From IMG/VR virus record IMGVR_UViG_2061766007_000286: a stretch of 64,000 bases of DNA, one strand, 5' to 3'. The stretch comes from an uncultured virus (IMG/VR IMGVR_UViG_2061766007_000286) (taxonomy: Duplodnaviria > Heunggongvirae > Uroviricota > Caudoviricetes). The notes beneath the pieces were generated by a model, which had not been told where the DNA came from, searched no databases, and worked only from the letters and a program-made list of their open reading frames with translations. Positions 1-55,036 of the stretch are shown piece by piece (within the stretch, counting starts at the first letter, position 1; every line of letters starts with the position of its first letter). The translations under genes and the position numbers were made by a program.

Positions 1-273
1 GCGTTCCGTGGGTGTTATGTCTTTGTCATTGGTATATGTTACTCCGAGGTTTTCTCTGATCACTTCCATATAAGTCCTTACATATGCTCCCATGGAAATG
101 CAGGCTAGTCTGGTCTGCCGAATCGCCACAATCACTCGGTGAAAATAATACTTCTCTAACGGCTCGCCATTTGCCGGGTCGAGCAAGCGGAGTCTGTCTG
201 CCAAATCAAGCAATTTGAAGTATGAAGACTGTAAAGATTCGAGAGCGTCTTTCGCTGCGTCAATGTCCATCAT
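1..273 (-). CDS. hypothetical protein (3' end runs off the window)
   Basis: Manual translation from ATG at 273 (MMDIDAAKDALESLQSSYFKLL...) is open to base 1; AGGAG lies 8 nt upstream. Not in the ORF track. Confidence 0.6.
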   Translation of the reverse strand, partial: MMDIDAAKDALESLQSSYFKLLDLADRLRLLDPANGEPLEKYYFHRVIVAIRQTRLACISMGAYVRTYMEVIRENLGVTYTNDKDITPTER

Positions 274-288
274 TCGTCATTCTCCTAC

Positions 289-1098
289 TCAAATGTGCAC
301 CCACTTGAACTCGGGCCTCTGAGCCGGTCTCGTGGTGCAGAATGTTTCTATGTGGTTCTTGAGAAGTTGGTCGACCTCGTCGGTGAATTCTATGCAGTCA
401 TATACCTGTTCCCCCTGTGGAGAAAGCCAAACAAGACGGCACCCCTTCACTTTAAGACCGGTTACATGTTCGATTATCTTCTGATACAAACGAAGCTGGA
501 TGGAATATCCGGCGAGAGAGCTGTTCGGCCAGTTACCAAAAGGCCACAACAGATTCTCCCATTCGTTGGAATCCGTGAATTTCTTGTTGGTCTTCCAGTC
601 GTATATCCACAGGTCGCCGTTCTCGTCCAGGAAAAGCTGGTCGATGGTTCCGACCAGACTCCAGTCGTACACACCAACCTGGAGTTCCGAACACACCGGA
701 GTCATCGTTTTAAGCAGGTTCTGCATGAACGCGTCGCATACCGGCTTTAGGTCCTGAAAAGCTTTGACGATCTCCGGCCTATTCAAATTGGATGGAATGT
801 CAAAAGTCTTCCCGCTCAGATTGCATTCCATGTACCTGTGCGTCAACGTGCCCTTGTCACATGCAAAAGCGGCTTCGCGGTCCCATTCCGCGATTATCTC
901 CTCTTTGGTCTTTCCCCATTTGGCGGCCTGCCTCGCGGCGCACCCTTCCTTGTCGAACGGCTTGTGCAGTTTTCCGACAATGGTCGTAACCGATAACAGC
1001 TTCTTTTCCGGCTTGCCCTCGAACCAGTATTTGTGCCCTTCGTCCTGGAACTTCACGTCGCTGAATGCTGACAACAACCTATCGCGCACTTCTGTCAT
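289..1098 (-). CDS. PD-(D/E)XK exonuclease (phage RecB/Cas4-like superfamily)
   Basis: Motifs SVTT, GTLTHRYME, GTIDQLF, IYDWKT, YSIQLRLY. Confidence 0.8.
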   Translation of the reverse strand: MTEVRDRLLSAFSDVKFQDEGHKYWFEGKPEKKLLSVTTIVGKLHKPFDKEGCAARQAAKWGKTKEEIIAEWDREAAFACDKGTLTHRYMECNLSGKTFDIPSNLNRPEIVKAFQDLKPVCDAFMQNLLKTMTPVCSELQVGVYDWSLVGTIDQLFLDENGDLWIYDWKTNKKFTDSNEWENLLWPFGNWPNSSLAGYSIQLRLYQKIIEHVTGLKVKGCRLVWLSPQGEQVYDCIEFTDEVDQLLKNHIETFCTTRPAQRPEFKWVHI

Positions 1099-1358
1099 CT
1101 AATGTCCTCGCTATTGGCACTGACTTCTGTGCTTTCTCTTGAAACCTTCCTACGCCGTTCTTTCATCTCGGCAAGACGTTTCTTGTTTTCCGAATTCACG
1201 TAGAATGTTTCCTTTCTCCAGCTCTTGAGCATGTTCACCATCTCAATGATGAGCCGCCTGACAACTCTGCCAGTCTTTATTCCTTTGTGCTTGTCAAACT
1301 CCTCCAATGCATCGAGGAAGTCGATGTACACCTGGTTGAATCGATCAGTGTCGATCAC
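1095..1358 (-). CDS. small basic helical protein, possibly Hc1-like nucleoid-binding
   Basis: 87 aa; KGIKTGRVVRRLIIEMVNMLKSWRKE resembles the short Hc1-like pattern; ATGA overlaps with both neighbours. Confidence 0.4.
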   Translation of the reverse strand: MIDTDRFNQVYIDFLDALEEFDKHKGIKTGRVVRRLIIEMVNMLKSWRKETFYVNSENKKRLAEMKERRRKVSRESTEVSANSEDIR

Positions 1359-1855
1359 TGGAAATCCTCATTGATGGTCTTCTCTGCACGGGATCTGCTC
1401 GCGAACCAGTTCTTGTAGATCGTATTTCCCTTGTTGTCGATCAGGTTGTATTTCTCGTCGATGGATACAAGAGCCGACTCGTCGTCGAAGAACTCGACCG
1501 TATCAAACCACTCGTCGGAAACGACGCGGTTTTCCGTGAAACTGAAGAGATTTTTCTTCCCGTCCTTGCCAACGATCGCGACACCGGAGATCGGATACTC
1601 GATGTAGTCGAGCCATTCGTCACTTAGAATGTCCCCGTCCGTGTCGATGAAGTTCCACCCATCGCTGTTGCGAACGATTGCCACCCCGCACGAGGCGAAC
1701 AGACCAACCTCGTCGAAGGCCAGATCGGTTATGAGGTTCCCGTCTCCGTCGGAGAAAGAGTACTTGTACTTCCCGTCTTCTATCCAGCAAACCTTTAGAA
1801 GGTCTTCGCCGGCGGGACTAGTCGTGACGTTTTCCAGATCTCTCGTGTTTTTCAT
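1355..1855 (-). CDS. WG-repeat (KWG-type) beta-repeat protein
   Basis: Repeated units such as GVAIVRNSDGWNFIDTDGDILSDEWLD and ALVSIDEKYNLIDNKGNTI. Confidence 0.75.
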   Translation of the reverse strand: MKNTRDLENVTTSPAGEDLLKVCWIEDGKYKYSFSDGDGNLITDLAFDEVGLFASCGVAIVRNSDGWNFIDTDGDILSDEWLDYIEYPISGVAIVGKDGKKNLFSFTENRVVSDEWFDTVEFFDDESALVSIDEKYNLIDNKGNTIYKNWFASRSRAEKTINEDFQ

Positions 1856-1875
1856 GGGAGCAACCTCTTACAGAG

Positions 1876-1889
1876 AATATAGTATTTTT
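1876..1889 (-). promoter_or_regulatory. putative early/middle promoter (A-tract-CTATATT class)
   Basis: AAAAATACTATATT, 20 nt upstream of the ATG at 1855. Confidence 0.55.
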
Positions 1890-1902
1890 ATGCTCCAGGA
1901 GA

Positions 1903-3093
1903 TCAGGCTTTCTTTGCCTTTCTGCCGCACGACTTCTCTTCAGGGCAGTAACCGAGCTTTTCGCACTTTGGAACAAAAAGATTTTCCGCGATCCACGCCC
2001 ATTCTTCGTCAAGTTTTGAAAGCTCTTCTCTCAGTTTTCTGGCGAAAGCTCTCATCTCGGTGTATGCTCTGGAACAAAGCCGCTGATTCATGAAGTTTTC
2101 AAGCATGCGGAGATTGCACTTCAACACCACCTTCGTATGCATGCCAAGTGGGAGAATGTTTGCGGCGTCTTCCTTCGATACACCGAGATCCATAAGCGTC
2201 TCATACGCTTTTCGGATTCCTTCCATAGCATCGTCGTATACCTTCTTAGCTTCGTCCGACATGGAGGGAGTGTAGTAGTCGAACTTCTTGCAGTTGATGT
2301 ATCTGGTGCTTTCCTGAAGCCGCGTAGGGGCACCGCCGATGTGAGTATATAGCTCTCTAACGGCTCGACTTGACCACCCGGACAGCACCAATTCGATGTT
2401 CACGAATTCCATCACACGCCCATGCCCGGATTGAATGCAGGATTTTGCTCTGGAGACGTTCTTCTCTGGATCGTCGATTGGCGAGTTCCAGCATATCCCG
2501 GCCATCTTACCGATGATCTGTAACGGGTTCTGCGTGGTCGTTGGAAATAGTTCTATTTTCGGTTCTTCCGTCTTCTCTTTCACTACAAGTTTGGACCAGA
2601 ACCGGACCCGCCATTCCGTAGTATCGACCCAATACGCCGGACAACACTTACCAGTCACGTCGTAATGCCGCACGACGTTTTCAGGTGGAACCGAATACTT
2701 CTTCATCAGCTCACGGACCAGTTCGAGGGCGTTGTCGATCGTTTGCTCCGTTGGCTTGTATTCGGGGTCCTTCTTGTCGTTGCACAACTCGACTCCAATG
2801 GAGTTAGTGTTTGTGCATACACCGTGAAGAGAACCGCCTTTTCCGCTCAGCTTCTTCCCACCGCAGTGCCAAGCAATCACGTCGTCGGGAACTGACTGCA
2901 TGACCTTGTTGGAGTCAACGAAGTAATGCGCTGAGGACTTGGTCACATTGTTCTTGAAGTACTTACAATTTCCACTTGACGTGTCCCCTGCCCCAGCCGT
3001 GTAATGTATTACAATGTACTTGATGTCTTCCAGCTTTCTCTTCTTTCCGTGGTTGGCTTCGTTTGCAGCGACAAAATCTATCTTCATGATCAA
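1903..3093 (-). CDS. thyX: fusion: N-acetylmuramoyl-L-alanine amidase (Amidase_2) + flavin-dependent thymidylate synthase ThyX
   Basis: N-terminal IVIHYTA, SSAHYFVD, AWHCG, NSIGVELC, VVRHYDVTGKCCP; C-terminal GHGRVMEF, RELYTH...RLQESTRY, NLRMLENFMNQRLCSRAYTEMR; no stop between the domains. Confidence 0.85.
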   Translation of the reverse strand: MIMKIDFVAANEANHGKKRKLEDIKYIVIHYTAGAGDTSSGNCKYFKNNVTKSSAHYFVDSNKVMQSVPDDVIAWHCGGKKLSGKGGSLHGVCTNTNSIGVELCNDKKDPEYKPTEQTIDNALELVRELMKKYSVPPENVVRHYDVTGKCCPAYWVDTTEWRVRFWSKLVVKEKTEEPKIELFPTTTQNPLQIIGKMAGICWNSPIDDPEKNVSRAKSCIQSGHGRVMEFVNIELVLSGWSSRAVRELYTHIGGAPTRLQESTRYINCKKFDYYTPSMSDEAKKVYDDAMEGIRKAYETLMDLGVSKEDAANILPLGMHTKVVLKCNLRMLENFMNQRLCSRAYTEMRAFARKLREELSKLDEEWAWIAENLFVPKCEKLGYCPEEKSCGRKAKKA

Positions 3094-3530
3094 TCCTCAT
3101 GCACTATGTGCGGTAAAAGGTACTCTGCAAGCCACTTCTCGTCAGGGAAGCCGACATACATGTTGAAAATGTTTCCATCCCTGTCGCAGAATATGTGTAG
3201 CGGCATCTTGCTGAATCCGAACTCGTTCCATATCATGTTCTCGACACGCTTCCCGTCGGCGGCCTCGAAGTTCTCGAATATCCACTTCACGTTGTTTATC
3301 GGATCTTCCTGGAACCCGTAATCGTTCATCCACTTGGCCATCGCGGCGAACCTGTCCCTGCAGTCAGGGCAGATCTTCTTGCCGTCGAAGAAACTGAATA
3401 TCCACACCTTCGTGTTCGGGAACCTGTCCATCAGAACCTTTCCATACGACGACTTGCCGTACTCGACTAGCCTGTCGTTGAGCGGTACGTATTCTCCGTC
3501 TATCACGGCTTTCTTCGGACAGCAGCTCAT
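3090..3530 (-). CDS. thioredoxin-fold protein (CPDC)
   Basis: Start reassigned to ATG 3530 (GAGGAG upstream); VWIFSFF...CPDC and KMPLHIFCDRDG fit the thioredoxin CxxC and cis-Pro pattern. Confidence 0.6.
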   Translation of the reverse strand: MSCCPKKAVIDGEYVPLNDRLVEYGKSSYGKVLMDRFPNTKVWIFSFFDGKKICPDCRDRFAAMAKWMNDYGFQEDPINNVKWIFENFEAADGKRVENMIWNEFGFSKMPLHIFCDRDGNIFNMYVGFPDEKWLAEYLLPHIVHED

Positions 3531-3538
3531 TGAACTCC

Positions 3539-4576
3539 TCAGTGCAGTATCGTCTCTATCTTCGACCCTATCATCAGCACCTTGTCGGCATACAGCGTGA
3601 ATAGGTTTTTGTATTTGGCGAGCATCTGCTGGTTTCTGAAAACGGGAACCAGGTCGGAAAGCATAGCGTCTCCTGGATTGCACCCGACGGTGTATATGTT
3701 CACCCGTTCATCGCCGTGGCATGAAGCTCCCCAGCTCTGATCCATCGGAGTCAATATGACGCCGTCTCGCACGCAGTTCGGTTCCATCGAATCGTACACG
3801 TTCTTGGTGTTGGAAACGTAGTGTCTTATGCGGTCGAACATACCGTACATGTAATTGCAGACGATGTCCACTCTGTTGTCGCACATGTACACAGTCGTGT
3901 TCTTTATGCGCAGGCTAACCGTGTCCTTGATCTTGCTTATGTCTCCGGTGCGTATGCGGATCTTCGGGTGGTTGAGCAGTTCCATGCAGATGTCATTGTA
4001 GCTTGTCGACGGGTAGTAGATGTTCCCGGTGCCGACATCGCCTATGAAATCCATCGGGAACTCCTTTTTGTACGACCTGGATGTCATCTTGGAGATCTTT
4101 ATCCCGTTGAACTTGTTGTTTGGTATGCGGTCGAATATGCCGCGGATGATGTACTTGCCGACCTTCGACGAATACAATACGTGCGGCTTCGTCGTTTCCT
4201 TGTATTCGTCCATGAACGCTTCCATGTCGCCGATCCCGTTGATTAGACTGGCATATTCCGCATCGTTCGAAAAGCTCGATTTGTTAAGTGGGTATTGGAA
4301 AAGACCGTTCGTGTTGTTCTGTATCGTCAAGTTCTTGTGCGGTATGTACATGAACCTGGCGTTGTGGTACTTCGTGAACTCGCACTTCACGCCCGCGTCT
4401 TGCAGCTTCAACACCGACGCCTCTGTCAGAAAATCCTTCATCGTGTCTAGCGGGTACCCGAGTATCCCCGTGTTGATGAATGTCACGCTTTTGCATGACG
4501 GGTTGTTCGCCAACGTTCTGGCGATATAGCACGCATCTAGCGTGTATCCTACGACTACTACGTTTGGTTGCGGCAA
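3539..4576 (-). CDS. divergent UDP-galactopyranose mutase (Glf)-like protein
   Basis: N-terminal VVVVGY...CYIARTLA Rossmann-like start, FQYPLN, YYPSTSYNDICMELLNHPKI, C-terminal KYKNL...VLMIG follow the Glf layout; the GxGxxG motif is lost. Confidence 0.45.
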   Translation of the reverse strand: MPQPNVVVVGYTLDACYIARTLANNPSCKSVTFINTGILGYPLDTMKDFLTEASVLKLQDAGVKCEFTKYHNARFMYIPHKNLTIQNNTNGLFQYPLNKSSFSNDAEYASLINGIGDMEAFMDEYKETTKPHVLYSSKVGKYIIRGIFDRIPNNKFNGIKISKMTSRSYKKEFPMDFIGDVGTGNIYYPSTSYNDICMELLNHPKIRIRTGDISKIKDTVSLRIKNTTVYMCDNRVDIVCNYMYGMFDRIRHYVSNTKNVYDSMEPNCVRDGVILTPMDQSWGASCHGDERVNIYTVGCNPGDAMLSDLVPVFRNQQMLAKYKNLFTLYADKVLMIGSKIETILH

Positions 4577-4604
4577 GGTTGATAACCCCGTTTTTACAAT
4601 GAAT

Positions 4605-4618
4605 AATATAGATTATTT
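4605..4618 (-). promoter_or_regulatory. putative early/middle promoter
   Basis: AAATAATCTATATT upstream of the TTG at 4576. Confidence 0.5.
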
Positions 4619-4646
4619 CTACGTAAGCGTTGTCGCGCTTTGGAAT

Positions 4647-5171
4647 CTACGGCCAAATGGACCGCGAAATCTCATCGATAAGAGCATTCACAGCGTCTTT
4701 GAACTCTTTGAAACTCTCATATGCTTTGTCCGGGTCTCCCATATCATCGAATACGGTGACGTACCTCTGGATCTCTTCTCCATATTCTTGTTCTGAGGGG
4801 TGTATGAGAACCTGATCCGTCAGAACCTTTCCGTCTTCAAAGAAGACCCCCATCATCGTCTTTCCTTCAGCCTTGCAGATTTCGAATCCATAGATATGCC
4901 GATCCTTCGGGCTGAAGGAAATGAACAATGGAGACATGTCAGTTGAATTTAGGCTGATGTCGTCGTATTCAAGTATCGCGTCACCAACCTGTTTGACGAC
5001 ATATTTGCATTCGTGTTGTTCATGTTCCTTTGCATATCTCTCCAGCATTTCGTATTTTAGATTTACATAGCCGAGGAACAACTCGATTTCCGCGGCCAGG
5101 CGGAACACGTTTCTGTCATATTTCGACAGCTGGATCACATCGCCGTCTTCGGTCGAATGCATGTCTAACAT
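4647..5171 (-). CDS. hypothetical protein
   Basis: 174 aa ORF with GGAGG RBS, co-oriented in the gene string. Confidence 0.65.
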   Translation of the reverse strand: MLDMHSTEDGDVIQLSKYDRNVFRLAAEIELFLGYVNLKYEMLERYAKEHEQHECKYVVKQVGDAILEYDDISLNSTDMSPLFISFSPKDRHIYGFEICKAEGKTMMGVFFEDGKVLTDQVLIHPSEQEYGEEIQRYVTVFDDMGDPDKAYESFKEFKDAVNALIDEISRSIWP

Positions 5172-5180
5172 TTTCCCTCC

Positions 5181-6005
5181 TTATTCTTCCGGTTCAAACG
5201 TCCTCTCCGGCGCGCACTGTTCGTATTCGCCGAACAGGTGGTCCATGTAGCCAGGCGGGAACGCATATTCGTCTGATGTCCCGTAGTTGGCGGCGAAAGT
5301 TATCCCTGAGTAATTCCTCGCCTCGCGGGGGTTCCTGAAGACCGAATTCCTCTCGTTTTCAGGGAGAACATGCTTAGGTATGCCGTGCTTTTCGCACAGG
5401 TAGTCTAGCAGGATGCCAAGAGCGGATAACTGGTCTTCGGTTGGCCTTGTGAAATAAGAGCATCCGCGGAACGGAACGTCCAACTTGATATACGAGTTCT
5501 TGTCTGTCACGAAACAATAAACGTTCTCGCCCTTCTTCTTGCAGTTGGGTATAGACAGCAAGTTGAGGGGCCTGTAGAAGTCCAGCTTTCCATATCCGAT
5601 AAGAGATATTCCTATCGATCCCTTCGATACTGAACTTCCCCCGACCGGCGGCTTTGTGAAATAGCTCGACCAGTACTTGCTGTCGAACATCTTGATGATC
5701 GCACCGTTTCTGGCCACCAGGAAATTCACCGAACACCCAGTGCTCCTCGAGTTTTTCCGGAAAGCCTCTTCGAGCTCGCACTCGCTGAAGTCTATGACTA
5801 TCTTTGTCTTCTTAGTGCTTTCCCTGTGGAAGAACTGGTCGTTTGGCATGTGCGGGCAGAGCATGTTCTTCGACTCGCTTATCTGGACATAATCCATGGG
5901 CATTGAAGGGTCGTTCGTTATCATGTCAATGAACGTGACCTCGTTTTTCCGGAGCCCGGTAACGCGCGTCTTTATCTTGAGAAATGGGTTGTTTGCCTGA
6001 ATCAT
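5181..6005 (-). CDS. Amidase_2-fold protein lacking Zn ligands (probable pseudo-amidase)
   Basis: KIVIDFSE, SVNFLVARNGAI, SIGISLIG, TEDQLSALGILLDYLCEKHGIP, GITFAANY follow the amidase scaffold, with the His/Glu positions replaced. Confidence 0.6.
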   Translation of the reverse strand: MIQANNPFLKIKTRVTGLRKNEVTFIDMITNDPSMPMDYVQISESKNMLCPHMPNDQFFHRESTKKTKIVIDFSECELEEAFRKNSRSTGCSVNFLVARNGAIIKMFDSKYWSSYFTKPPVGGSSVSKGSIGISLIGYGKLDFYRPLNLLSIPNCKKKGENVYCFVTDKNSYIKLDVPFRGCSYFTRPTEDQLSALGILLDYLCEKHGIPKHVLPENERNSVFRNPREARNYSGITFAANYGTSDEYAFPPGYMDHLFGEYEQCAPERTFEPEE

Positions 6006-6013
6006 CCGCTGAA

Positions 6014-6021
6014 TGTTTATA
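6014..6021 (-). promoter_or_regulatory. putative late promoter variant TATAAACA
   Basis: 8 nt upstream of ATG 6005; overlaps the stop codon of the upstream gene. Confidence 0.4.
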
Positions 6022-6874
6022 AGTCTGCTTTTTTGCGCCGTTTCGCGACTGGCTTGGCGGTTGGTTTGTCGTATTTTTTCGTGGCAGTCTTCCGATTTGT
6101 GTTGGAAGTCTTCTTGGTCGTTTTCAGCGCCTTTTCCTTGTCCTTTATAGAACCCCTGTGCTTCGACGTGCTGAGCACGGGATTTATCTTTTTAACCGAT
6201 TCTTTCAGCTCGGCGAGAAGATCGTCGCTTCGTTCGGCAGTGTCGCCTATTCTTGATATGTTCTCGCGGTTCATCGGATCGGTTCCCCCGATCGACTCTT
6301 CCAGTTTTCCGACACACACGTTCAAATCGGAAAAGGTGCCGAGCAGATTCTTGCAATCGGAGTCGTCCAACACCTTGCTGACCGTCGAATCATTCGCTCG
6401 CATGTTGAGATACTGGTCCACCACGACGGCCAGCTTTTTGCACTTTTTCAAGTTGCTGGCTATCCTGTCGAGGTTTTCGTCGATGCTTTCCATGTTGCGT
6501 TTGGCGGTCTCGTGTTCCTCTTCGGTGTACTCTACCTTGGTAAGGTCGTGCAGGAACGTGTTGTAGAATATCCTGGAGTGCAGAAGAGCCTCCTTCAGGA
6601 ATTCCGGCAGCAGCATGTCACCTTCCCCGTTCTTGTCGACTTCTTTCAATCTCTTTTCGAGGTTTCCTATCGCCGTTTGTATGTCGTTGATATAACCGTA
6701 AAACGCCCGGACGGTGGCAGGGGATTCCAGCGCCTGCACTGATATGAGGTACTTGTTCACGTTCTTGATGAACTCGGCCGGATCGAGATTCTCGTACTTC
6801 CCCCACGGGATGCCGAAGGAGCCGTCATCGTCATCAAAATCCTGATCGCCATTGAACATGTCGTCGAAACCCAT
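6017..6874 (-). CDS. hypothetical coiled-coil protein with acidic N-terminus and Lys-rich tail
   Basis: 285 aa; DDDDG N-terminus, heptad-like middle, KTTKKTS...KRRKK tail. Confidence 0.65.
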   Translation of the reverse strand: MGFDDMFNGDQDFDDDDGSFGIPWGKYENLDPAEFIKNVNKYLISVQALESPATVRAFYGYINDIQTAIGNLEKRLKEVDKNGEGDMLLPEFLKEALLHSRIFYNTFLHDLTKVEYTEEEHETAKRNMESIDENLDRIASNLKKCKKLAVVVDQYLNMRANDSTVSKVLDDSDCKNLLGTFSDLNVCVGKLEESIGGTDPMNRENISRIGDTAERSDDLLAELKESVKKINPVLSTSKHRGSIKDKEKALKTTKKTSNTNRKTATKKYDKPTAKPVAKRRKKADL

Positions 6875-6880
6875 TGAACC

Positions 6881-7879
6881 TCACACGCCGGTAGAACCAA
6901 CATTCACGAAAACATCTTTCCTCGCCTCTTTCAGTTTAGAATACAATTCAAACTCTTCTTCCGTAAGCGCCGTCGGTATGACGACGTTTATCGTCGCTAC
7001 AAGATCCGATCCGTTTATGCCCTTTCCGCTTATCCTGAACTTCGCGCCATTCTGCGTTCCCTTCGGGACATTCAAGTCAATCTCTTCCCCGAAATACATC
7101 ATCCTTATCGTTCCACCAAGAACCAGGTCAACCGGACTCGCGTCTATCACCACGGAGACATCGTTTCCGTCCATCGAGACGCCTTCTTCCGGCTGTATGT
7201 TCACTCGGAGCCTGAGGTCTCCGTTGGGGCCGCCATTCAGTCCGCAGTTCCCCATGCCGGACGCGACAAGAACCGTTCCGTTAGCCGTGTCTTTCGGAAC
7301 TTCTATCTCTATCCTGGATTCTTTTATGACGAATCCTAAGCCGTCACATCTACCGCATTTCCGGTCGACGACCCTCCCAGTTCCATTGCATGAGTCGCAT
7401 CTATCGCCATTTATTTCTCCGGTTCCCGCGCATTTGTCGCACTTCTTGAGCATCTCGGCGCCGGTTGCGTCGCAGTATCCGCAACGGCACCCCTTTCTGT
7501 ACCCGATCTCGAACTTGCGTCCTTTCTTCGCGTCCGATACGCTGATCGGAAGATCTATCTCTATGTCCTCGCCTCGTATTTCTACCCGCTTTGCCTTCTT
7601 GCCAAAGTCCTTTGCGACGTTTGACTTGCCGAACACTGAATTGAAAGACGAGACGTTGAATATGGAAGATATCCTGGAATTGTACTTGCGGCGTTCCTTT
7701 TCGTCGGACAGCACCTTGTACGCTTCGTTTACGAGAGCGAATCGCTCGGCCGCCTCTTCATCTCCGGGATTCTTGTCTGGGTGGTATTTCCTGGCAAGAT
7801 CTTTGTAAGCCCGCTTTATCTCCACGTCGGAGGCGAACTTGCCGATCCCGAGAATTTCGTAATACGTACGCGCGGCCAT
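6881..7879 (-). CDS. dnaJ: DnaJ (Hsp40) co-chaperone
   Basis: J domain YYEILG...KYHPDKN...AYKVLSD; four CxxCxxxG zinc motifs (CGYCDATG, CDKCAGTG, CDSCNGTG, CGRCDGLG); C-terminal GGPNGDL and VPKGTQNG. Confidence 0.93.
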   Translation of the reverse strand: MAARTYYEILGIGKFASDVEIKRAYKDLARKYHPDKNPGDEEAAERFALVNEAYKVLSDEKERRKYNSRISSIFNVSSFNSVFGKSNVAKDFGKKAKRVEIRGEDIEIDLPISVSDAKKGRKFEIGYRKGCRCGYCDATGAEMLKKCDKCAGTGEINGDRCDSCNGTGRVVDRKCGRCDGLGFVIKESRIEIEVPKDTANGTVLVASGMGNCGLNGGPNGDLRLRVNIQPEEGVSMDGNDVSVVIDASPVDLVLGGTIRMMYFGEEIDLNVPKGTQNGAKFRISGKGINGSDLVATINVVIPTALTEEEFELYSKLKEARKDVFVNVGSTGV

Positions 7880-8241
7880 TATCTATCAACACCTATCCCG
7901 AACGTCAAGCAGGATATCGCATCGTTCCTTGACATTTTGTATTTGTTCATAATATAGGTTATGTTTTCGTCGGTAAGTTCGTTTTTCGCCTTTTTCGCCA
8001 ACTTCCACTTCACCGGTATATAATGCCCGTCGAATGACGTGTAGGCGAGACACTGTATTCGTTTGGGCAAGTTGAAGAACTCCATCGTGTTGGTGAAGTC
8101 GCTTATGTTCCAGTTCCCCGACATGGACAATACTTTCTGTGTCATGAACATGTCGAACCCTTCCAGCTCGCCTTCGTTCGGCGGGACGGATTTCTTTCTG
8201 TTTCCCAGAAAGGTGAATGGGCTGTATCCGTTTTTTGCCAT
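7879..8241 (-). CDS. clamp loader small subunit, T4 gp62-like
   Basis: SPFTFL...FMTQKVLS...LPKRIQ...KW...YIMNKYKMSRNDAISCL pattern; directly follows the gp44-like gene. Confidence 0.7.
   Translation of the reverse strand: MAKNGYSPFTFLGNRKKSVPPNEGELEGFDMFMTQKVLSMSGNWNISDFTNTMEFFNLPKRIQCLAYTSFDGHYIPVKWKLAKKAKNELTDENITYIMNKYKMSRNDAISCLTFGIGVDR
7951..7964 (-). promoter_or_regulatory. putative early/middle promoter inside the gp62-like gene, upstream of dnaJ
   Basis: ACATAACCTATATT, about 70 nt upstream of the dnaJ ATG. Confidence 0.4.
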
Positions 8242-9242
8242 CAGAGAATCCTCATGACAGAACTGAGAAACGCCATCATGTTGATTTCCTGGTCGACCGC
8301 CGGATACGCGGACTGGAACTGGTACTTCCCTAGCAGGACGGCGAACTCCATGCGTTTTTCCTTCGGGATGAGTTCGACGAACTTGTTTCCGATCAGAGGA
8401 TACAGCGAGGCGAAGTCCACGATGTTCCCGTTTATGTAATCTCTCGTTCCGTCAAAGTCCTTCTTGGAGACGAGCTCCCAGATGTGGTCGACGTCGAACG
8501 ACACCACATCGCCCTTTCCGGCGAGGATCGATCCGTTGTTCTTAAGGAAATTTACATACATCGCCTGGAGTATCGACCGGATATCCGGGTAATAGTCCTT
8601 TGCGATTTCGGCCAATGCCTTCTTGTCGTATGTACCACCATACTTTGCCGTTTCGGTCTCGGCGATTTCCTTCATCCGGTGGAACAGCTTTCTCTTGAGG
8701 GAATCGTCGTTCTTGGAATACGAGAACGATATCGGAGCGCATCTGGAGCGAATGGGCTCCGGAATGATGTGGATGTTGTTGCAGGTCAGAATGAACCTGA
8801 GGGTATTTGTCGTGCTCTCGATAAGTGGCTGGAGACCCGTGAAGAAGCGAGCGGGTTCCGACGGTCTGTCCACCTCGTCTAGGATGACAAATCTTGGTTT
8901 GTCGGTCGGATTCGCCTGTTTGGAGTACTCCTTGATGTCGTCAAGGAGGTCCATGGAGCCGCGAGCAACAGTAAAGAACTTGTAGTCAGCGTTTATCGTC
9001 TCCGGAATTGCCACCGCGAGGGAGGTCTTGCCAGATCCAGGGTTCCCGGAGTGGAAGATATAGTGGGTAAATTCGTTGTTCTGCATGCCGAACTTGACCA
9101 TATTGGTGATTTCGTCCGGGAGAATCACCTCATCTACCGTTTTCGGGCGGTATTTTACGATCCACGGCAGCTTGTCTCCGGTCAGCTGATCTGCCGGCGT
9201 ATTCATGAATTCATTTATTCCATCTTCAGAAAAGACATCCAT
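8241..9242 (-). CDS. clamp loader AAA+ ATPase, T4 gp44/RFC-like
   Basis: WIVKYRPKTVDEVILP, Walker A GNPGSGKTS, Walker B ILDEVD, FILTCN, SRC motif. Confidence 0.92.
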   Translation of the reverse strand: MDVFSEDGINEFMNTPADQLTGDKLPWIVKYRPKTVDEVILPDEITNMVKFGMQNNEFTHYIFHSGNPGSGKTSLAVAIPETINADYKFFTVARGSMDLLDDIKEYSKQANPTDKPRFVILDEVDRPSEPARFFTGLQPLIESTTNTLRFILTCNNIHIIPEPIRSRCAPISFSYSKNDDSLKRKLFHRMKEIAETETAKYGGTYDKKALAEIAKDYYPDIRSILQAMYVNFLKNNGSILAGKGDVVSFDVDHIWELVSKKDFDGTRDYINGNIVDFASLYPLIGNKFVELIPKEKRMEFAVLLGKYQFQSAYPAVDQEINMMAFLSSVMRIL

Positions 9243-9301
9243 TGCGTTATCCTGTTGAAATTTTCCCGTTTCCGGAGGCTTCTCCCCCGGTTTCTAGTCG
9301 T

Positions 9302-9315
9302 AATATAGTATTTTC
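9302..9315 (-). promoter_or_regulatory. putative early/middle promoter
   Basis: GAAAATACTATATT upstream of the clamp loader gene. Confidence 0.55.
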
Positions 9316-9372
9316 GAGACATACTTGTCCGAATAATCCGATCAACGATGGCGACATTTTTCCAACGCAGTA

Positions 9373-9380
9373 TATAAACT
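9373..9380 (+). promoter_or_regulatory. putative late promoter TATAAACT
   Basis: 25 nt upstream of ATG 9406; recurrent intergenic motif resembling T4 TATAAATA. Confidence 0.65.
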
Positions 9381-9405
9381 AAGGTAGGATAATGTCCGGC
9401 TAGAC

Positions 9406-12342
9406 ATGGAATACTGGGAAAATTCGTACTCCTCATGGAACTGGTATAACGAGGTCCTGGAACACAGGAACGGTGGTTCCATATTTGAAGCCGATGAAGA
9501 GCAGAAGGAAGAGGCCCCGCAAGAAGACAATAAAGACGGCGGAGAACAACAGGCCGAAACCACAAAAGAAGGCGATAAAGACGGTGGAAGTCAGAAGACC
9601 GAAGAGAAAAAAGAAGGGGATAACGCCGAGAATGTATCCGGAGAGAACGTAGAAAACGAGGAAAACGACAAAAACGAAGGCACCAAAAATACAGAAAATA
9701 ACGGCACAGACCCACTAGAAGAACAATTTCTTGACAAACCAACCGATGACATACAGTTGCAGGGGGAAGCCGGAGAATATCTCATAGAGCTTCATAATTC
9801 GTACTCCGATGTCAAGGTCTCGGGGTATAATCCGTGGAAACTGGACTGGAGCACTCACCCAGACAACATAGCAGCTCAGCTAAAGTATCTATTCCCGGAG
9901 CCGGACGGATCGTGGAAGATATGGGAACCGAAATACAAGGGAACCCGCGACTATAGTGCAAAAAGCACCAGAGGTCTTGGTGAAAGGTGGCACGGTGGAG
10001 AAGTGAGTGATGACAACTTTAAGATTGTATCCGACATTAGTCGCGACGAATGGTGCAGCTCAAGAATTCAACTAAACAACAATGATAAGCCAATATCTAA
10101 AGTATTCGATCTTGTAAATAATGAGCTTGCAGAATTGGCAAATAAGACTGGCTTCATAAATGACGTAAACATAGACATACTCGCACTGATGGCCTCCAAT
10201 AAAGACGACAGAGAAGAACTACTCAAAAAGATGAAAAAACAGCTCGGTGTTGATAACATTGGAGGACTCGGAAAAGACATCATAAATAACGATGTTTATC
10301 TGAAGCCACTTTTCCGTCCTCTTACCGTCAAAGAACTAATAGAAATCAAGGAAAAGTTTGATAACGAAACATCAAATGAACCGTCTTCAAATGATAAAGA
10401 AATCAAGAAAAAGAAACAGATCGGCAAGGCCATAGAAAACATTTCAAAGAACTCTACCACGGAGTCGTATGATGCTTCTGGGCTGAAAAATGGAAAGAAA
10501 AAGCAGGGTATTGAAAAAGACACTTTATGCATTCTACTGAAGCCAGGCGATACGAAGGATGCTATTGAGAATATATTGTCAGAAGCTGATGGGGCGCCAT
10601 TCTCCATAAACATGACAAAGGAGGACATGGTGTCTCTCCCAACAAACACAGTCAATTCTCTGTACAGTCTGAATCGATTGATCGTAGAGTACAGAGGAAG
10701 TGGCGACGATGAAGAATGTTTAGTTTCCGCTGTATATGACAAAAAGCCAGGGCTCAATTTCAAATACGTTAAATCATACGAAAGAGGCGTAAATGATATA
10801 AAAGAAGACGGTAATAACCGCGTCCCTCTTATAGTATCATCGAAAAAAATGATAGATTCCAGTTCAATAAATGGTACTGGTGAGTGGGAAAAAGACTCCA
10901 AATACGGCATTGAAATATCACATGACCTCTATGAATTCATTTTCAGCACAGAACAACAATATATTACACATGTTATTAGTGGGATCCTTAGTTCCGTGAA
11001 CGCCCCATCTCCAGACTACCTCTCACCTCTCGCCGGTCTCGATCTGTCCGGCATCAGACGGGAAATCATGGAATCATCTCGCCTAGACGTGCTTCTCGAA
11101 GAGATGACCCTCAACGACACCGTCCCAAAGGGTAGTCGTGGCAAAGCACCGAAATACATAAAACATCCATATAAAGGCTTGAACGGGAGCATAACATATA
11201 AAGGAATAAAGCAGCACGAAAATGGAGCTGCCAGAACTATGTGGATTGTTCCGAGCGATTCTGACCCATCTAAAACGTATAATGTACAAATAGACGTTGA
11301 GGTGCCGGGAAAAGGAGGTCTCTTTGCCATAGCTAGAAAGAAAAACCGCAAGCCTGGAGAACTTTCAGCAGACAGAGACAACCTTCGGACATCAAACCTT
11401 CGTCTATACTGTACATGTCCAGACTATCACTTTGGCGGAATAGAATACAACCTCAACCAGAAAAACGCAGCAATGCGAGACCCGGATCTCGGAGGCAAGA
11501 ACCCGGGCGATCTGCACAAGTACATAACCAAGGACGGAAAGGAGTATGAAAAAGGATTCCCAACTCCGGTCAAGCCTATAAAAAGAGATCCCGAAGGAAA
11601 GAAGGAGCTTTGCAAACATATGCATGCCGTTCTTTTGGAATTCAGAAAAAAGATTCGCAAAATATTCTCCGACGCGAAAAATGCTCCAGCTGACTTGGAA
11701 AAAGTTGGATCATTCAACGAGAGCACAGGTAAAGTCATTCAGGCCCCTGATATCATGAACGATTTGGAGAAGACAATGCTCCAGGATAACGCTGAGCAGA
11801 CTCAGACGGAACCGGTTGAGACGGCCGAATCCACCGAAGAAGAAACCCGGCCAGAACAGGCTGAAGAGCAGAACGAAGAAGCGTCGATGGTTGCCGAGGA
11901 AAGTCCCGAAGAGTATCCAACCGAACCGGAAGGTGAATCCGAGCAGACGGAAGAACCCGAGCAGGAAGAACAGCCAGCGGAACCGGAACAGGAAGAAGAA
12001 CCCGATCATTTTGCCGACGCCGGCAACATGATGGATGAAGACGAGACCGTCGACAAACTTGAAGAAGAAAAGAACAAGAGAAAGAGTCTTTCGGATAGAA
12101 TAAAAGACGGCCTGAAGGACTTCGGCTCAAAGATCAAGAACGTCACCAGGCGTTTCTTCAGACATGAGGACTGCGAGTTGGCCGGACAGCTAATCGAACG
12201 GGTACTCGAATCGGACGACCCCCGCGTCATTCAGGAAAGCGTGAGCCAGATAGCCAAACTGCTTGAAGCTAACGGGAAGCACGACTACGCAAAGACCCTG
12301 TTGGAAGACGTCTACGAAAGACCGGGAAGACGCACGAAATAA
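9406..12342 (+). CDS. large acidic protein with SWIM-type zinc finger, probable head-associated
   Basis: LRLYCTCPDY...LCKHMHAVL (CxC...CxH); Glu-rich tracts; many (L/I)-x-E sites. Confidence 0.6.
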   Translation: MEYWENSYSSWNWYNEVLEHRNGGSIFEADEEQKEEAPQEDNKDGGEQQAETTKEGDKDGGSQKTEEKKEGDNAENVSGENVENEENDKNEGTKNTENNGTDPLEEQFLDKPTDDIQLQGEAGEYLIELHNSYSDVKVSGYNPWKLDWSTHPDNIAAQLKYLFPEPDGSWKIWEPKYKGTRDYSAKSTRGLGERWHGGEVSDDNFKIVSDISRDEWCSSRIQLNNNDKPISKVFDLVNNELAELANKTGFINDVNIDILALMASNKDDREELLKKMKKQLGVDNIGGLGKDIINNDVYLKPLFRPLTVKELIEIKEKFDNETSNEPSSNDKEIKKKKQIGKAIENISKNSTTESYDASGLKNGKKKQGIEKDTLCILLKPGDTKDAIENILSEADGAPFSINMTKEDMVSLPTNTVNSLYSLNRLIVEYRGSGDDEECLVSAVYDKKPGLNFKYVKSYERGVNDIKEDGNNRVPLIVSSKKMIDSSSINGTGEWEKDSKYGIEISHDLYEFIFSTEQQYITHVISGILSSVNAPSPDYLSPLAGLDLSGIRREIMESSRLDVLLEEMTLNDTVPKGSRGKAPKYIKHPYKGLNGSITYKGIKQHENGAARTMWIVPSDSDPSKTYNVQIDVEVPGKGGLFAIARKKNRKPGELSADRDNLRTSNLRLYCTCPDYHFGGIEYNLNQKNAAMRDPDLGGKNPGDLHKYITKDGKEYEKGFPTPVKPIKRDPEGKKELCKHMHAVLLEFRKKIRKIFSDAKNAPADLEKVGSFNESTGKVIQAPDIMNDLEKTMLQDNAEQTQTEPVETAESTEEETRPEQAEEQNEEASMVAEESPEEYPTEPEGESEQTEEPEQEEQPAEPEQEEEPDHFADAGNMMDEDETVDKLEEEKNKRKSLSDRIKDGLKDFGSKIKNVTRRFFRHEDCELAGQLIERVLESDDPRVIQESVSQIAKLLEANGKHDYAKTLLEDVYERPGRRTK

Positions 12343-15268: not shown

Positions 15269-17326
15269 ATGTCAAACGTGAAGAACGCATTTCCCCTTGA
15301 AAACCTGGCCGGCGACATCGCCAGGAACAACTTCAACTACCAGTCCGTCCTTAGCGGCCTGATAGAGTGGAATACCAGCAAGGCTGACACGGTTACGATA
15401 CGCCTGTCCAAGGACACCAACCCCTACTTCGAGGACTACACCATTCCAACGAAAAAGGCGATGGAAATCTCCTCGAAGCGCAACGAGAGCAGCGTTTCCG
15501 GAATGGTGTATTCCGGCAATTTCTCCATGGAGTCCATAATCGAAAAGAGCGTTTACGGAGGTGCGTTCGAATACGACACGGCCACGTTCAATCCGTCTAC
15601 CGACATAGAATCTAACGAGATACTCATCAACGCCACAAGCAGCTACTGGCTCGGATGTGCTATCAAATTCGTCGGAGACGATCTTCCACAGGAAATCTCG
15701 GCGTCGTCTCTCTACTACGTCGTAGCTTTCCAGGAAAACTCCATACAGATAAGCTCCGCGCCATCAGGGTCTCCGATGACCATAACGCCGACGACGACAT
15801 CGTCCACGGCCACAATCGTCAAGTATTCGACCAACCCAGTCCGCAGCCAGTCCGACCGCGGAGACGTCATAGTCGTCAAGCCGACGGTCTCCAGCAACGG
15901 AACGACGAAGTGGCGCCTGTATTACGCTCCCGTCATCTACGATTGGGAATCCGGTTCCGATTATCGTTTCGGAAACATCGTCAGACACGAAGACGTTTTC
16001 TATCACGTCATATTCTCCGTATCCAACTCGACGGTCGACCCAGCATCCGACGCGCTCAACTTCAGAAGGCTGTTCCGCGCATGGGAAGAAGGCGCTTCGT
16101 ACATGAAGGACGACATCGTAACTCTTGACGGAAGCGCGTATGTTGTGCGCAAGGACGTTGTGGCCGAGAACACTCCGGCAAACGACCCGTCCGCGTACCA
16201 GTTCTATGCTACCGAATGGACCGACGATGCGGACCACAATACCTACACGAAGGGTCAGCTCGTATGCCTCGACGGCAAGTCGTATCTCTGCAAAAACGGT
16301 ATCGTGAACGACGTGGTATCTCCCGACACCGACGAGGAAAACTGGATGCCGGTTATTCTGTTCAGGGTACCCAAATCAACGGCCATATCAGCAACCACTG
16401 TCATTAAGCAGGAAATGGACCGCGACGCCGCGTTGTTCATTCTCGCCAACGACGGGTACGATTCTAACGACACAACGAAGATACACCTCTCCATCGAGAC
16501 GAAGGAAATGGAGCAGAACTCCATCTACGACCGCTCGGTCGGATATTTCCCGACATCCAACTACGCGTGCTGGCCGGACACTAGCGCGAAGATATGGAGA
16601 ACCAATGACACCTATGAGACCCGCGACATCGACATCAGCAAGCGTCAGGACTACAGCGCCATGATGGTGTTCGAACACACCGACCAGGAGCACGCGAAGA
16701 CCATAAACTTCATAAATTACGACGGACCGGACCTCGACCAGGGTCTTTGCATATATCTTCCGATCGTATCCGAAATAAACGGCGGGTACGCCTATCCGGA
16801 AGACGGCTTCACATACGACTTCTTCTTCCGCATATGGCCTGTCGCGGCCTATACGAACGCTGCCACCAGAGACCACATAATCAACAAGGCGCAGATATAC
16901 GTATATTCCGCACCGGACACCGCCTCGATAAAGAACGACCAGTGCGGAAAGCCGATCGCAAAGTTCTCCATGTCGAGAGCCACGAACATGTTCATACACG
17001 GGGAAAACGTCTCCATACCTGACAAGCCTGTGTGCTACCGCGCAACATTCGTCTACAGCAAGGCGCGCGAAACGTGGATACTGTTCGACTACTACCAGTT
17101 GCCCGACCACATCTTCCTCGGACCGGTCGGCTTCATAGACCCGAACAATCCAGCCAATCTGGACATAAACGCCGATACGATCGGAGACATAAACCCGAAC
17201 GCCGCGTTCATCGGATACGAAACCGCAGGGTTCCCGCTGTTCCAGGACCCCTTCACGACCACCAGACTGACTCCGTACAGAGTCGATTTGGAAGGCTGGG
17301 AAGAGTTCAAAAACAGAATAATGTAA
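15269..17326 (+). CDS. virion protein with three CBM5/12 (ChiC-BD)-like carbohydrate-binding repeats
   Basis: WESGSDYRFGNIVRHEDVFY, WEEGASYMKDDIVTLDGSAY, WTD...YTKGQLVCLDGKSY. Confidence 0.6.
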   Translation: MSNVKNAFPLENLAGDIARNNFNYQSVLSGLIEWNTSKADTVTIRLSKDTNPYFEDYTIPTKKAMEISSKRNESSVSGMVYSGNFSMESIIEKSVYGGAFEYDTATFNPSTDIESNEILINATSSYWLGCAIKFVGDDLPQEISASSLYYVVAFQENSIQISSAPSGSPMTITPTTTSSTATIVKYSTNPVRSQSDRGDVIVVKPTVSSNGTTKWRLYYAPVIYDWESGSDYRFGNIVRHEDVFYHVIFSVSNSTVDPASDALNFRRLFRAWEEGASYMKDDIVTLDGSAYVVRKDVVAENTPANDPSAYQFYATEWTDDADHNTYTKGQLVCLDGKSYLCKNGIVNDVVSPDTDEENWMPVILFRVPKSTAISATTVIKQEMDRDAALFILANDGYDSNDTTKIHLSIETKEMEQNSIYDRSVGYFPTSNYACWPDTSAKIWRTNDTYETRDIDISKRQDYSAMMVFEHTDQEHAKTINFINYDGPDLDQGLCIYLPIVSEINGGYAYPEDGFTYDFFFRIWPVAAYTNAATRDHIINKAQIYVYSAPDTASIKNDQCGKPIAKFSMSRATNMFIHGENVSIPDKPVCYRATFVYSKARETWILFDYYQLPDHIFLGPVGFIDPNNPANLDINADTIGDINPNAAFIGYETAGFPLFQDPFTTTRLTPYRVDLEGWEEFKNRIM

Positions 17327-54700: not shown

Positions 54701-54804
54701 TCTAATTTCGATCCACTTGCTGGGTTTTCTGCGTGTGTGTAATCCTTGATGTATTCAATTTTGTTTTCAATCTGTTTTTGTGTTAGCTTGACGAATCCTG
54801 ACAT
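51754..54804 (-). CDS. nrdD: class III anaerobic ribonucleoside-triphosphate reductase, intein-containing allele
   Basis: PYCVAI, LTFPVVT, SSCCRL, PAENLG, CESC...CPSC, glycyl radical loop TRIIGYL; no ATP cone. Confidence 0.95.
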   Translation of the reverse strand: MSGFVKLTQKQIENKIEYIKDYTHAENPASGSKLDANANVTVKNLTSLACELNKDINIQVNRKILYNKISKLFDTDLADEYIRQLEEHEIYAHDETSLAPYCVAISMYPFITDGMKPLGGESAAPKHLHSFCGSFVNLIYAISCQFAGACLHGSQKILVTENGKTKSISMKELVSRFKLDHSFESDGSEWEYADVSGLGLFVAEDGKNVAINKVYRRKYDGDIYNITTKTGLSVKCSKDHKFKHLYRGRTFETKAENLAVGDTVFANKDYSYLVNKNSLDYITGQVIGILCGDGNIGDEEVRVSVNNEQQFIMDFLDEAVEKIGLTNKKTRTLDKRGNTCWSYYIGSTNVSKQIKSMLLPGNTDTYSKNVDVSDKSIDWQMGFLDGLLVTDGCYTKSHSISISLTNEGLIETVQKILSNVNKYKNIIRIPSKRENRKDLFKIGIPMSLIKYLSLTLKKPTFESLVAWESKDFHITEQDELYYIGPNASKTVKSNVVATNKKHRREDFVKCDVITSIEKEANDDEYVYELETETHWYNAGGFITHNCATVEFLMYFDWFARKDYGDNYLKTNKQEITDLLQQVVYCLNQPAGARNYQSTFWNISLFDKNYFDSLFGTFYFPDGTQPSWKSLQKLQNFFMKWFNDERSKALLTFPVVTAAMLVNEDKPVDEQFARDRAQDLAEGNSFFIYESSSVDSLSSCCRLRNELSDNDFSYSLGAGGVKSGSINVITINFNRLIQNVSKSYMIEKEIDKDTMLKEHMDELTDRIYKTVQVQVEKIQKYQVSYRSIMESYKAHRMLPVYDAGFIDLDKQFLTTGINGLVEGCEYLGFEISDNEKYKNFVSGALKVIYDTDKAGKTKYGYKFNTEYVPAENLGVKNAKFDRESGYEVPRDCYNSYFYKVEDDTLNEIDKFRLHGGSMISYLDGGSALHLNLREYPDAEQYYKMMCIAAKEGCNYWTTNVAITVCESCGHIDKHTLDKCPSCGSTSISYATRIIGYLKKISSFSKGRQIEASKRYYH
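53170..54357 (-). mobile_element. intein (396 aa) with LAGLIDADG homing endonuclease in nrdD
   Basis: FAGA|CLHGSQ...CSKDHKF, GILCGDG, FLDGLLVTDG, VYELET...ITHN|CAT; absent from the second allele. Confidence 0.93.
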
Positions 54805-54897
54805 ATTTTTCTTTCCTCTTTCCTTCTTGAAGAACTTGTTTTCGTTTTGTTTATACCGCCGAAAAATCTTTTCAAACCCACTTCTGGGCCGCCAAGA

Positions 54898-55026
54898 TTA
54901 TAAACTATTTGTCGGTCTGGCTCCGTTGTACATATCCTCAAAATCTTCAATTTTCAACGCGTCATTTCTCACCATTGTCAGCAAAGCCCTATACACCGAG
55001 CTCACAAACCTATGCGAAGAATCTAT
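54898..55026 (-). repeat. second-allele copy of the glycosyltransferase 3' end (matches 56814..56942)
   Basis: IDSSHRFVSSVYRALLT...RPT(N/I)SL present twice, this copy next to the gap at 55027-55036. Confidence 0.8.
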
Positions 55027-55036
55027 NNNNNNNNNN

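Follow-up and report, generated by a model that had tools for sequence, protein, structure and literature searches.

We found that a large, uncultured tailed phage of the gut has a single gene in which an endolysin-type cell-wall amidase is joined in frame to a flavin-dependent thymidylate synthase, ThyX. The gene is on the minus strand at 1903..3093 of a 64,000-nucleotide stretch of DNA (the window) from IMG/VR record IMGVR_UViG_2061766007_000286 (Caudoviricetes). It is a real, selected fusion contained in one open reading frame (ORF). The fusion is rare yet conserved.

The same architecture was present in other proteins. We compared the fusion protein to 5.8 billion clustered proteins and obtained 5,382 matches. 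Both Pfam domains, Amidase_2 and Thy1, were present in six of the best 120 (P0002-P0007), which answers the domain-architecture search suggested in a preliminary description of the gene. These six proteins were 392-396 amino acids (aa) long, matched with 98-100% coverage, and were 94, 81, 70, 64, 63, and 62% identical to the fusion in the window. Some were encoded on contigs of 118-193 kb. The remaining 114 of the best 120 contained Thy1 only and were 217-258 aa long. In a library of 50%-identity representatives, the P0002 cluster alone spanned both domains among the best 150 of 9,653 matches. At the DNA level, 2 of 29 IMG/VR loci of this ThyX clade were fused, as were 3 of 41 metagenome loci; contigs bearing fused loci were 40, 132, and 182 kb.

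We also compared the gene to contigs from sequencing runs. The probable source run contained a contig identical to the window, and the best-matching runs (X1-X4) are possibly the window's own source and so are not independent. Contigs from two other studies crossed the junction between the two domains without an insertion or deletion (indel). One (X6) spans 1903-3647 with 135 substitutions and no gaps. The other (X5, from a third study) spans 1479-2820 and has two indels in all, at 1893 and 1900, both beyond the ORF. The ORF had no stop or frameshift, in agreement with the preliminary description, which noted no stop between the two domains. Third codon positions held 22 of the 32 listed differences to close variants within the ORF. 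In pairwise comparisons of the fused genes from the window and two other loci (L001 and L002), the proportion of synonymous differences (pS) was saturated (0.76-0.88), and the proportion of nonsynonymous differences (pN) was 0.31-0.35 in the amidase half and 0.20-0.24 in the ThyX half. These comparisons show both halves to be under long-term selection, as judged from sequence. We also considered a lost stop codon or a chimeric join, produced by sequencing or assembly. We found nothing in favor of this. With seven clusters sharing the architecture, several assemblies, and contigs from two other studies that have no gap across the join, there is almost no chance that the fusion is such an artefact.

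The ORF list gave one open frame at 1903..3093 (minus strand), 396 aa long when read from a TTG. The likely start is the ATG at 3087-3085, six bases past GAGGA (3098-3094), which gives a product of 394 aa. We prefer this start because the homologues begin with MKI and because GAGGA resembles a ribosome binding site. The TGA of the upstream gene (3092-3090) is between the GAGGA and the ATG. This overlap of the upstream stop with the start region of the fusion suggests that translation of the two genes may be coupled. The features of the gene are:

1903..3087, minus strand: coding sequence of the fusion, Amidase_2, linker, and ThyX (394 codons plus the stop at 1903-1905)
3094..3098, minus strand: GAGGA, a Shine-Dalgarno-like run, read from the sequence
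2635..3030, minus strand: Amidase_2 catalytic domain, residues 20-151, with H28, E100, H141, K147, and C149 (from Pfam and alignments)
2587..2637, minus strand: post-catalytic helix AYWVD..W..FWSKL, residues 151-167 (from the model and alignment with ordinary endolysins)
2557..2586, minus strand: charged linker VVKEKTEEPK, residues 168-177 (from alignment, inspection of the DNA, and the model)
2014..2538, minus strand: Thy1/ThyX domain, residues 184-358 (from Pfam, profile alignment, and Foldseek)
2299..2349, minus strand: variant ThyX motif YTHIGGAPTRLQESTRY, residues 247-263, with T-H-I in place of R-H-R and the terminal Ser, Arg, and Tyr retained (from alignments)
1924..1974, minus strand: subfamily-specific C-terminal Cys motif VPKC-x5-C-x5-CG, with C375, C381, and C387 (from alignment)

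Sequence comparisons show that the N-terminal half is the catalytic domain of an endolysin-type N-acetylmuramoyl-L-alanine amidase. It matched Amidase_2 over profile positions 3-130 of 131 (5e-29; 101.7 bits compared to a cut-off of 26). PHROG endolysin/amidase (lysis) families matched it down to 8e-39, and it aligned with the solved endolysin domains of PlyL (2L47, 1YB0) and XlyA (3HMB) at 4e-14 to 1e-11. H28, E100, H141, K147, and C149 aligned with their counterparts in these three structures and were invariant in all seven fused proteins. We take H28, H141, and C149 to be zinc ligands and E100 and K147 to be catalytic, by comparison to PlyL. The amidase thus appears intact, as had been proposed. 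Its relatives among solved structures (30 Protein Data Bank [PDB] sequences, E<=0.01) were PlyL/XlyA-type endolysins, AmiD, AmpDh2, and Atl amidases.

Searching with the amidase half alone gave 1,959 matches. Four of the best 120 were fusions. The others in this set were 51-60% identical and contained Amidase_2 alone or with SH3_3, SH3_4, PG_binding_1, or SPOR, among others. The nearest non-fused relatives among the matches listed were ordinary modular endolysins (52-60% identity). The fusion itself has no C-terminal wall-binding domain among its Pfam matches: Thy1 was the only C-terminal family.

The position of the join points to how the fusion arose. It coincides with the usual endolysin boundary between catalytic domain, linker, and wall-binding domain, and therefore ThyX occupies the position at which a wall-binding domain would be expected. 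Two other proteins, P0133 and P0274 (on contigs of 144 and 164 kb), have the same post-catalytic helix and charged linker, followed by a three-repeat domain instead of ThyX. We think it most likely, judging by these sequences, that the fusion originated through an exchange of modules at the endolysin linker and not by read-through of two adjacent genes.

We looked for a separate amidase gene adjoining thyX and found none. The amidase domain matched 3 of 68 ThyX loci (with flanks of 3-4 kb), and all three were fused. None of the 37 neighboring ORFs of standalone thyX genes that were scanned (of 48; 11 from the near-duplicate loci L015, L018, L023, L027, L028, and L029 were omitted) encoded an amidase. 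For 2 of the 27 viral loci (L012 and L016), no clean ORF was obtained. Fusion by read-through is ruled out for the sampled relatives, since there was no amidase gene beside a separate thyX. The preliminary description had raised the concern that relatives might always encode two genes; the sampled relatives do not. It had also inferred a coupling of peptidoglycan hydrolysis to the supply of thymidine monophosphate (dTMP). Domain shuffling at the endolysin linker appears to be a simpler reading.

In a tree of ThyX sequences, the seven fusions were inside one supported clade of 17 (96/93) along with 10 standalone phage-type enzymes. This clade adjoined, at an unresolved fork, a clade of 16 rows with the Treponema proteins P0042 and P0049. 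One fused protein, P0004, has an amidase like that in the window and a ThyX nearly identical to that of P0005. We conclude from this mosaic that the halves recombine while the fused state persists.

The two domains are joined by a linker that differed in length by up to 3-4 residues between fused proteins. An AlphaFold2 model (from a 62-row alignment) had a mean predicted local distance difference test score (pLDDT) of 90.3 and was confident for both domains; residues 141-180 scored just 58-79. Judging from this low pLDDT, the linker is flexible in the model. A search of the ESM Atlas with the fusion sequence gave no usable match.

A charged linker with variable length and low model confidence is also what might be seen if one ORF gave two products. 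Internal initiation or proteolysis in the linker could free ThyX, the amidase, or both, either as an expression device or to form a mixed oligomer. In-frame secondary starts that co-produce a binding domain are known in endolysin genes. There is a purine-rich run before codon 178 (ATA in the window), with a GTG at the equivalent place in L002. In addition, two proteases, one a prohead protease and the other ClpP-like, are encoded in a 132-kb phage sequence that contains another of the fusions (G001). However, no start codon with a well-spaced Shine-Dalgarno-like run was common to the three linker DNAs inspected, and the invariant K177 aligns with the Met of standalone enzymes. The sole GTG in the linker (V169) is preceded by TCCAAACTTGTA, with no Shine-Dalgarno-like run there, in agreement with the preliminary description. 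We consider production of two products from this ORF to be unlikely.

The C-terminal half is a full-length ThyX domain. It matched Thy1 over profile positions 5-187 of 191 (6e-36; 124.5 bits compared to a cut-off of 24.8). Foldseek aligned it with ThyX from Thermotoga maritima with a template modeling (TM) score of 0.75-0.80, normalised to target length. We aligned a profile built from 44 members of the clade to ThyX from Mycobacterium tuberculosis (6e-18). R87, H96, Q103, S105, R107, Y108, R190, and R199 of the M. tuberculosis enzyme were retained; R87, Q103, S105, R107, Y108, R190, and R199 correspond to R241, Q258, S260, R262, Y263, R327, and R336 in the fusion. S71 (M. tuberculosis numbering) was replaced by Arg (R224). 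The roles of the contact residues are taken from PMC6514825. H222, R241, H249, Q258, S260, R262, Y263, R327, and R336 were invariant in all seven fused proteins.

T-H-I in place of R-H-R was common to the whole ThyX subfamily and not limited to the fusion. Material from this clade is in the window (1906-2565, minus strand), in proteins P0042, P0049, and P0086, and in loci L042-L121. In cellular genomes, 433 of 436 pattern matches were confirmed as clade members, with rumen Treponema first (66-67% identity), followed by Lachnospiraceae and others. We tested five cellular genomes: Treponema ruminis (complete chromosome), T. saccharophilum, T. zioleckii, T. pectinovorum, and a metagenome-assembled genome of Acetatifactor. 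All five had no match to ThyA (PF00303) and exactly one match to Thy1 (PF02511), and that match was the clade member. The genes beside standalone phage thyX encode dUTPase, thymidine kinase, NAD-dependent ligase, and DUF1599. Because of the cellular genomes with a sole Thy1 and the neighbors in nucleotide metabolism, the simplest reading is that ThyX of this clade is a working thymidylate synthase.

Members of the clade also share cysteines. Those of the C-terminal C-x5-C-x5-CG and three further positions were conserved in at least 90% of the clade. Eight cysteines were invariant across the seven fusions, and six of these were conserved in at least 90% of sequences clade-wide. It is possible that this large THI(GG) clade is a metal-binding variant of flavin-dependent thymidylate synthase. 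We found no description of a ThyX clade that lacks RHR and has a Cys cluster.

The clade includes fusions of ThyX to other partners: an N-terminal guanylate-kinase-like domain (P0130), C-terminal ankyrin repeats (P0122), and a C-terminal PRA-PH domain, which is MazG-like (P0263). The clade thus tolerates added domains. Among 16 longer relatives that were scanned, 12 had extensions without an explanation. Several clade relatives have extensions of 80-170 aa that match no Pfam family (in the set of partner-fused relatives that includes P0125, P0134, and P0135).

The reading that we favor, to which we give somewhat less than an even chance, is that the fusion is a bifunctional and probably tetrameric protein that serves both as the phage dTMP synthase and as a multi-headed, holin-dependent endolysin. 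Both halves would be functional. The ThyX part would assemble as a homotetramer, by analogy to the rest of the ThyX family, and would make dTMP in the cytoplasm during replication. We found no hydrophobic segment that could be a signal or a membrane anchor (the highest 19-residue Kyte-Doolittle mean was at most 1.08 across the seven fused proteins). Because there is no such segment, four flexibly tethered amidase heads would reach peptidoglycan only after a holin opens the membrane. They would then cut the bond between N-acetylmuramic acid (MurNAc) and L-Ala. The oligomeric ThyX core would be in the architectural place of a wall-binding domain and could provide avidity through multivalency.

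Several observations weigh against this reading. The RHR motif reads T248-H249-I250 in the fusion and is followed by a two-residue insertion; both Arg are gone, and the His and Ser260 are kept. In solved ThyX, the RHR residues bind the phosphates and ribityl of flavin adenine dinucleotide (FAD), and the first Arg also contacts the flavin ring and deoxyuridine monophosphate (dUMP), according to the review PMC6514825. The protein missed the cut-off of the thyX equivalog model TIGR02170 in NCBIfam (77.1 compared to 87.9 bits), as did the T. zioleckii protein P0049 (72.4 bits). ThyX had been described as complete, and this holds for the length of the domain and for the ThyX fold, but not for the RHR motif or the equivalog score. 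Thymidine salvage in the five cellular genomes would be compatible with the sole-synthase pattern. Fused and standalone forms of ThyX were interleaved in the tree, with at least two changes of state; ThyX can therefore do without the amidase. The fusion gene is located amid replication genes (exonuclease, clamp loader) and not in a lysis cassette. No holin was identified among the 54 ORFs of the window, which is part of a genome, and profiles often miss holins. There may be another endolysin: the phage genomes are incomplete, G001 encodes a 437-aa protein with a VanY domain, and the window has a degenerate Amidase_2-like ORF. Lastly, the ThyX half is nearest to Treponema (66-67%), yet the amidase was not found in the five cellular genomes with this query.

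The loss of both RHR arginines and the score below the thyX equivalog cut-off could indicate that one half is no longer an enzyme. ThyX could be just an oligomerisation or scaffold domain, or the amidase just a module that binds or localises to peptidoglycan; the degenerate Amidase_2-like ORF (5184-6005) suggests that such domains can lose catalysis in this phage. On the other hand, the RHR change also occurs in the cellular enzymes, and the five genomes tested had no other candidate for a thymidylate synthase. Furthermore, the remaining contacts to substrate and flavin and the zinc and catalytic positions of the amidase were invariant in seven of seven fusions despite saturated synonymous divergence. 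We regard loss of activity in either half as very unlikely.

The location of the gene among genes for replication and nucleotide metabolism, the lack of an export signal, and the possible other wall hydrolase in G001 (the VanY-domain protein) might mean that the amidase is cytoplasmic and non-lytic. Tethered to a cytoplasmic enzyme, it could act, like AmpD, on muropeptide precursors (soluble or lipid-linked) or on intermediates of recycling, and would halt host wall synthesis or scavenge instead of serving as the terminal endolysin. Amidase_2 includes the cytoplasmic AmpD, and the AmpD model NF008758 matched weakly. However, that match (28.5 bits) was far under the cut-off of 143, and the nearest relatives among the matches listed (52-60% identity) are modular endolysins that bind the wall. 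In addition, canonical endolysins also lack signals and await a holin. It is quite unlikely that the amidase is of this type.

It is also conceivable that the bifunctional protein is regulated. Assembly or activity of a four-headed endolysin might depend on the flavoenzyme, through the redox state of its flavin, its occupancy by dUMP or folate, or the Cys cluster, so that lysis would be gated by DNA-precursor metabolism. In parallel, the ThyX clade, which lacks RHR arginines that are supposed to be universal and provides the only thymidylate synthase candidate in rumen Treponema and some Lachnospiraceae, would be an undescribed mechanistic variant, possibly binding metal or an iron-sulfur cluster. 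We view this combination as a long shot.

The genomic surroundings were analysed in partial sequences, namely the window, of 64 kb, and about 66% of the genome of G001. Of the 167 ORFs in G001, 146 were scanned; 5 that cross piece boundaries and 16 short ones were omitted. There was no other match to a thymidylate synthase among the 54 ORFs in the window or the 146 scanned in G001. Likewise, no other match in the lysis category was found among the 54 (with PHROG) or the 146. In both G001 and another phage sequence (G002), PF01510 matched the fusion only. The phages that carry the fusion are otherwise far apart: among 15 proteins encoded in the window at 1-17 kb, just the exonuclease (52%) and the fusion (62%) matched G001. 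Clues to the host diverge: ThyX is Treponema-like, whereas the relatives of the amidase resemble endolysins with SH3, PG_binding, or SPOR domains.

The window encodes a late sigma factor like gp55, and no single-subunit RNA polymerase was matched among its 54 ORFs. The preliminary description had placed the gene in an early-class operon. That assignment was a guess from the neighboring exonuclease and clamp loader genes. A scan of 1-9500 for promoters and terminators was at chance level (11 compared to 9.1 expected and 13 compared to 10.7 expected). No tRNA was found in the window. The neighbors at 3093-3530, 3542-4576, 4650-5171, and 6020-6874 had no Pfam family worth naming, even at E<=1.

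We made several other observations in these sequences. One of the changes of state in the ThyX tree is P0008, a standalone 218-aa ThyX on a 1.7-kb contig. Its first ~90 residues are Treponema-like, its central ~85 are identical to the protein from the window, and its last ~40 are nearly so. By its sequence, P0008 could have arisen by genuine recombination between host and phage, or it could be a chimera of metagenome assembly.

The ORF directly upstream of the fusion (3093-3683) overlaps the preceding 345-aa ORF (3539-4576) by 145 bases if its first start is used. With the ATG at 3530 as its start, its product is 146 aa long and has a CPDC motif but no match to a Pfam family. Both ORFs are on the minus strand. 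We considered that it might be thioredoxin-like, and set this aside as a guess without support. The Amidase_2-like ORF at 5184-6005 (minus strand; 274 aa) belongs to the same string of genes, 2 kb upstream of the fusion, and matched weakly (34.4 bits). It has SIGISL where the fused amidase has SIGVEL with the catalytic Glu, and its first zinc His is seemingly replaced (IVIDFS, judged by eye). Its product may be a catalytically dead binding protein similar to PGRP.

Elsewhere in the window, two adjacent ORFs of 1,016 and 418 aa (51757-56279, minus strand) both match the large subunit of anaerobic ribonucleotide reductase, NrdD, and adjoin ORFs for an NrdG-like activase and a radical-SAM protein. 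Here NrdD may have been duplicated or split, and an insertion perhaps interrupts it. The ORF for the large subunit of terminase (42740-45694, minus strand) is 985 aa long, roughly double what is usual, and has four matched stretches with a helicase-like match midway. An intein or an extra domain may have been inserted into it. G001 encodes a UDP-galactopyranose mutase beside a TET-associated glycosyltransferase, as well as the VanY peptidase-domain protein (L039:6650-7774, 8476-9492, and 15384-16694). The first two hint at glycosylated DNA bases, and the VanY-domain protein is a possible second wall hydrolase.

The amidase half of the fusion belongs to the same catalytic family as the modular Amidase_2 endolysins PlyL (Bacillus anthracis prophage LambdaBa02; 1YB0, 2L47) and XlyA (Bacillus subtilis; 3HMB, 3RDR), with aligned zinc and catalytic positions. 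Like its nearest modular-endolysin relatives, it has the post-catalytic helix and the charged linker and no signal peptide. It differs from modular endolysins in that its C-terminal module is a metabolic enzyme domain and not SH3_3, PG_binding_1, SPOR, or repeats. Oligomerisation also gives several wall-contacting units in multimeric endolysins such as PlyC, and Lys170 and the CTP1L type with extra binding-domain subunits. Those proteins oligomerise through a wall-binding domain, a part that in the fusion would be played by an enzyme of DNA-precursor synthesis.

The ThyX half is of the same Pfam family and fold as T. maritima TM0449 (1O26) and M. tuberculosis ThyX (3GWC, 2AF6), and has most of the contacts to dUMP and FAD. 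It differs from canonical ThyX by THI with the two-residue insertion, Arg in place of S71, the extra C-x5-C-x5-CG and further cysteines, a TIGR02170 score below cut-off, and the N-terminal amidase. Thy1 from Thermus thermophilus (6J61) has a C-terminal extra domain, and with P0130, P0122, and P0263 it indicates that appended domains are tolerated at either end. By Pfam family, the kinase-like and PRA-PH partners appear nucleotide-related and those in the ankyrin fusion and 6J61 do not, and none is a cell-wall hydrolase.

T7 lysozyme, which belongs to Amidase_2, is also an inhibitor of T7 RNA polymerase. It is a precedent for a second function in a phage amidase, and the preliminary description had drawn on it. 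The analogy did not hold up well, as T7 lysozyme was absent from the 30 PDB sequences that matched the amidase at E<=0.01. The two are in the same Pfam superfamily, but the second function of the fusion would come from a fused domain and not from moonlighting of the amidase fold.

As in the preliminary description, we know of no published example of this pairing. A search of titles and abstracts, with subscription journals and InterPro architecture tables outside its reach, found no publication on an amidase joined to ThyX. Among 50,697 GenBank phage records there was no fused match: 799 records matched, and none covered at least 80% of the protein.

When a fusion is conserved, its parts are usually linked in function. 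In this case the link would be between DNA-precursor supply and wall hydrolysis, the two ends of the lytic cycle, and to our knowledge no connection between them has been described. As ThyX is under study as a target for antibacterials (PMC6514825), the widespread ThyX clade that lacks RHR and has a Cys cluster matters both for the enzymology of ThyX and for how ThyX genes are recognised in genomes. Endolysins are made of interchangeable catalytic and wall-binding modules, and a natural, selected version with a complete oligomeric metabolic enzyme as the binding module would widen that rule. The fusion also suggests a scaffold for multivalent lysins.

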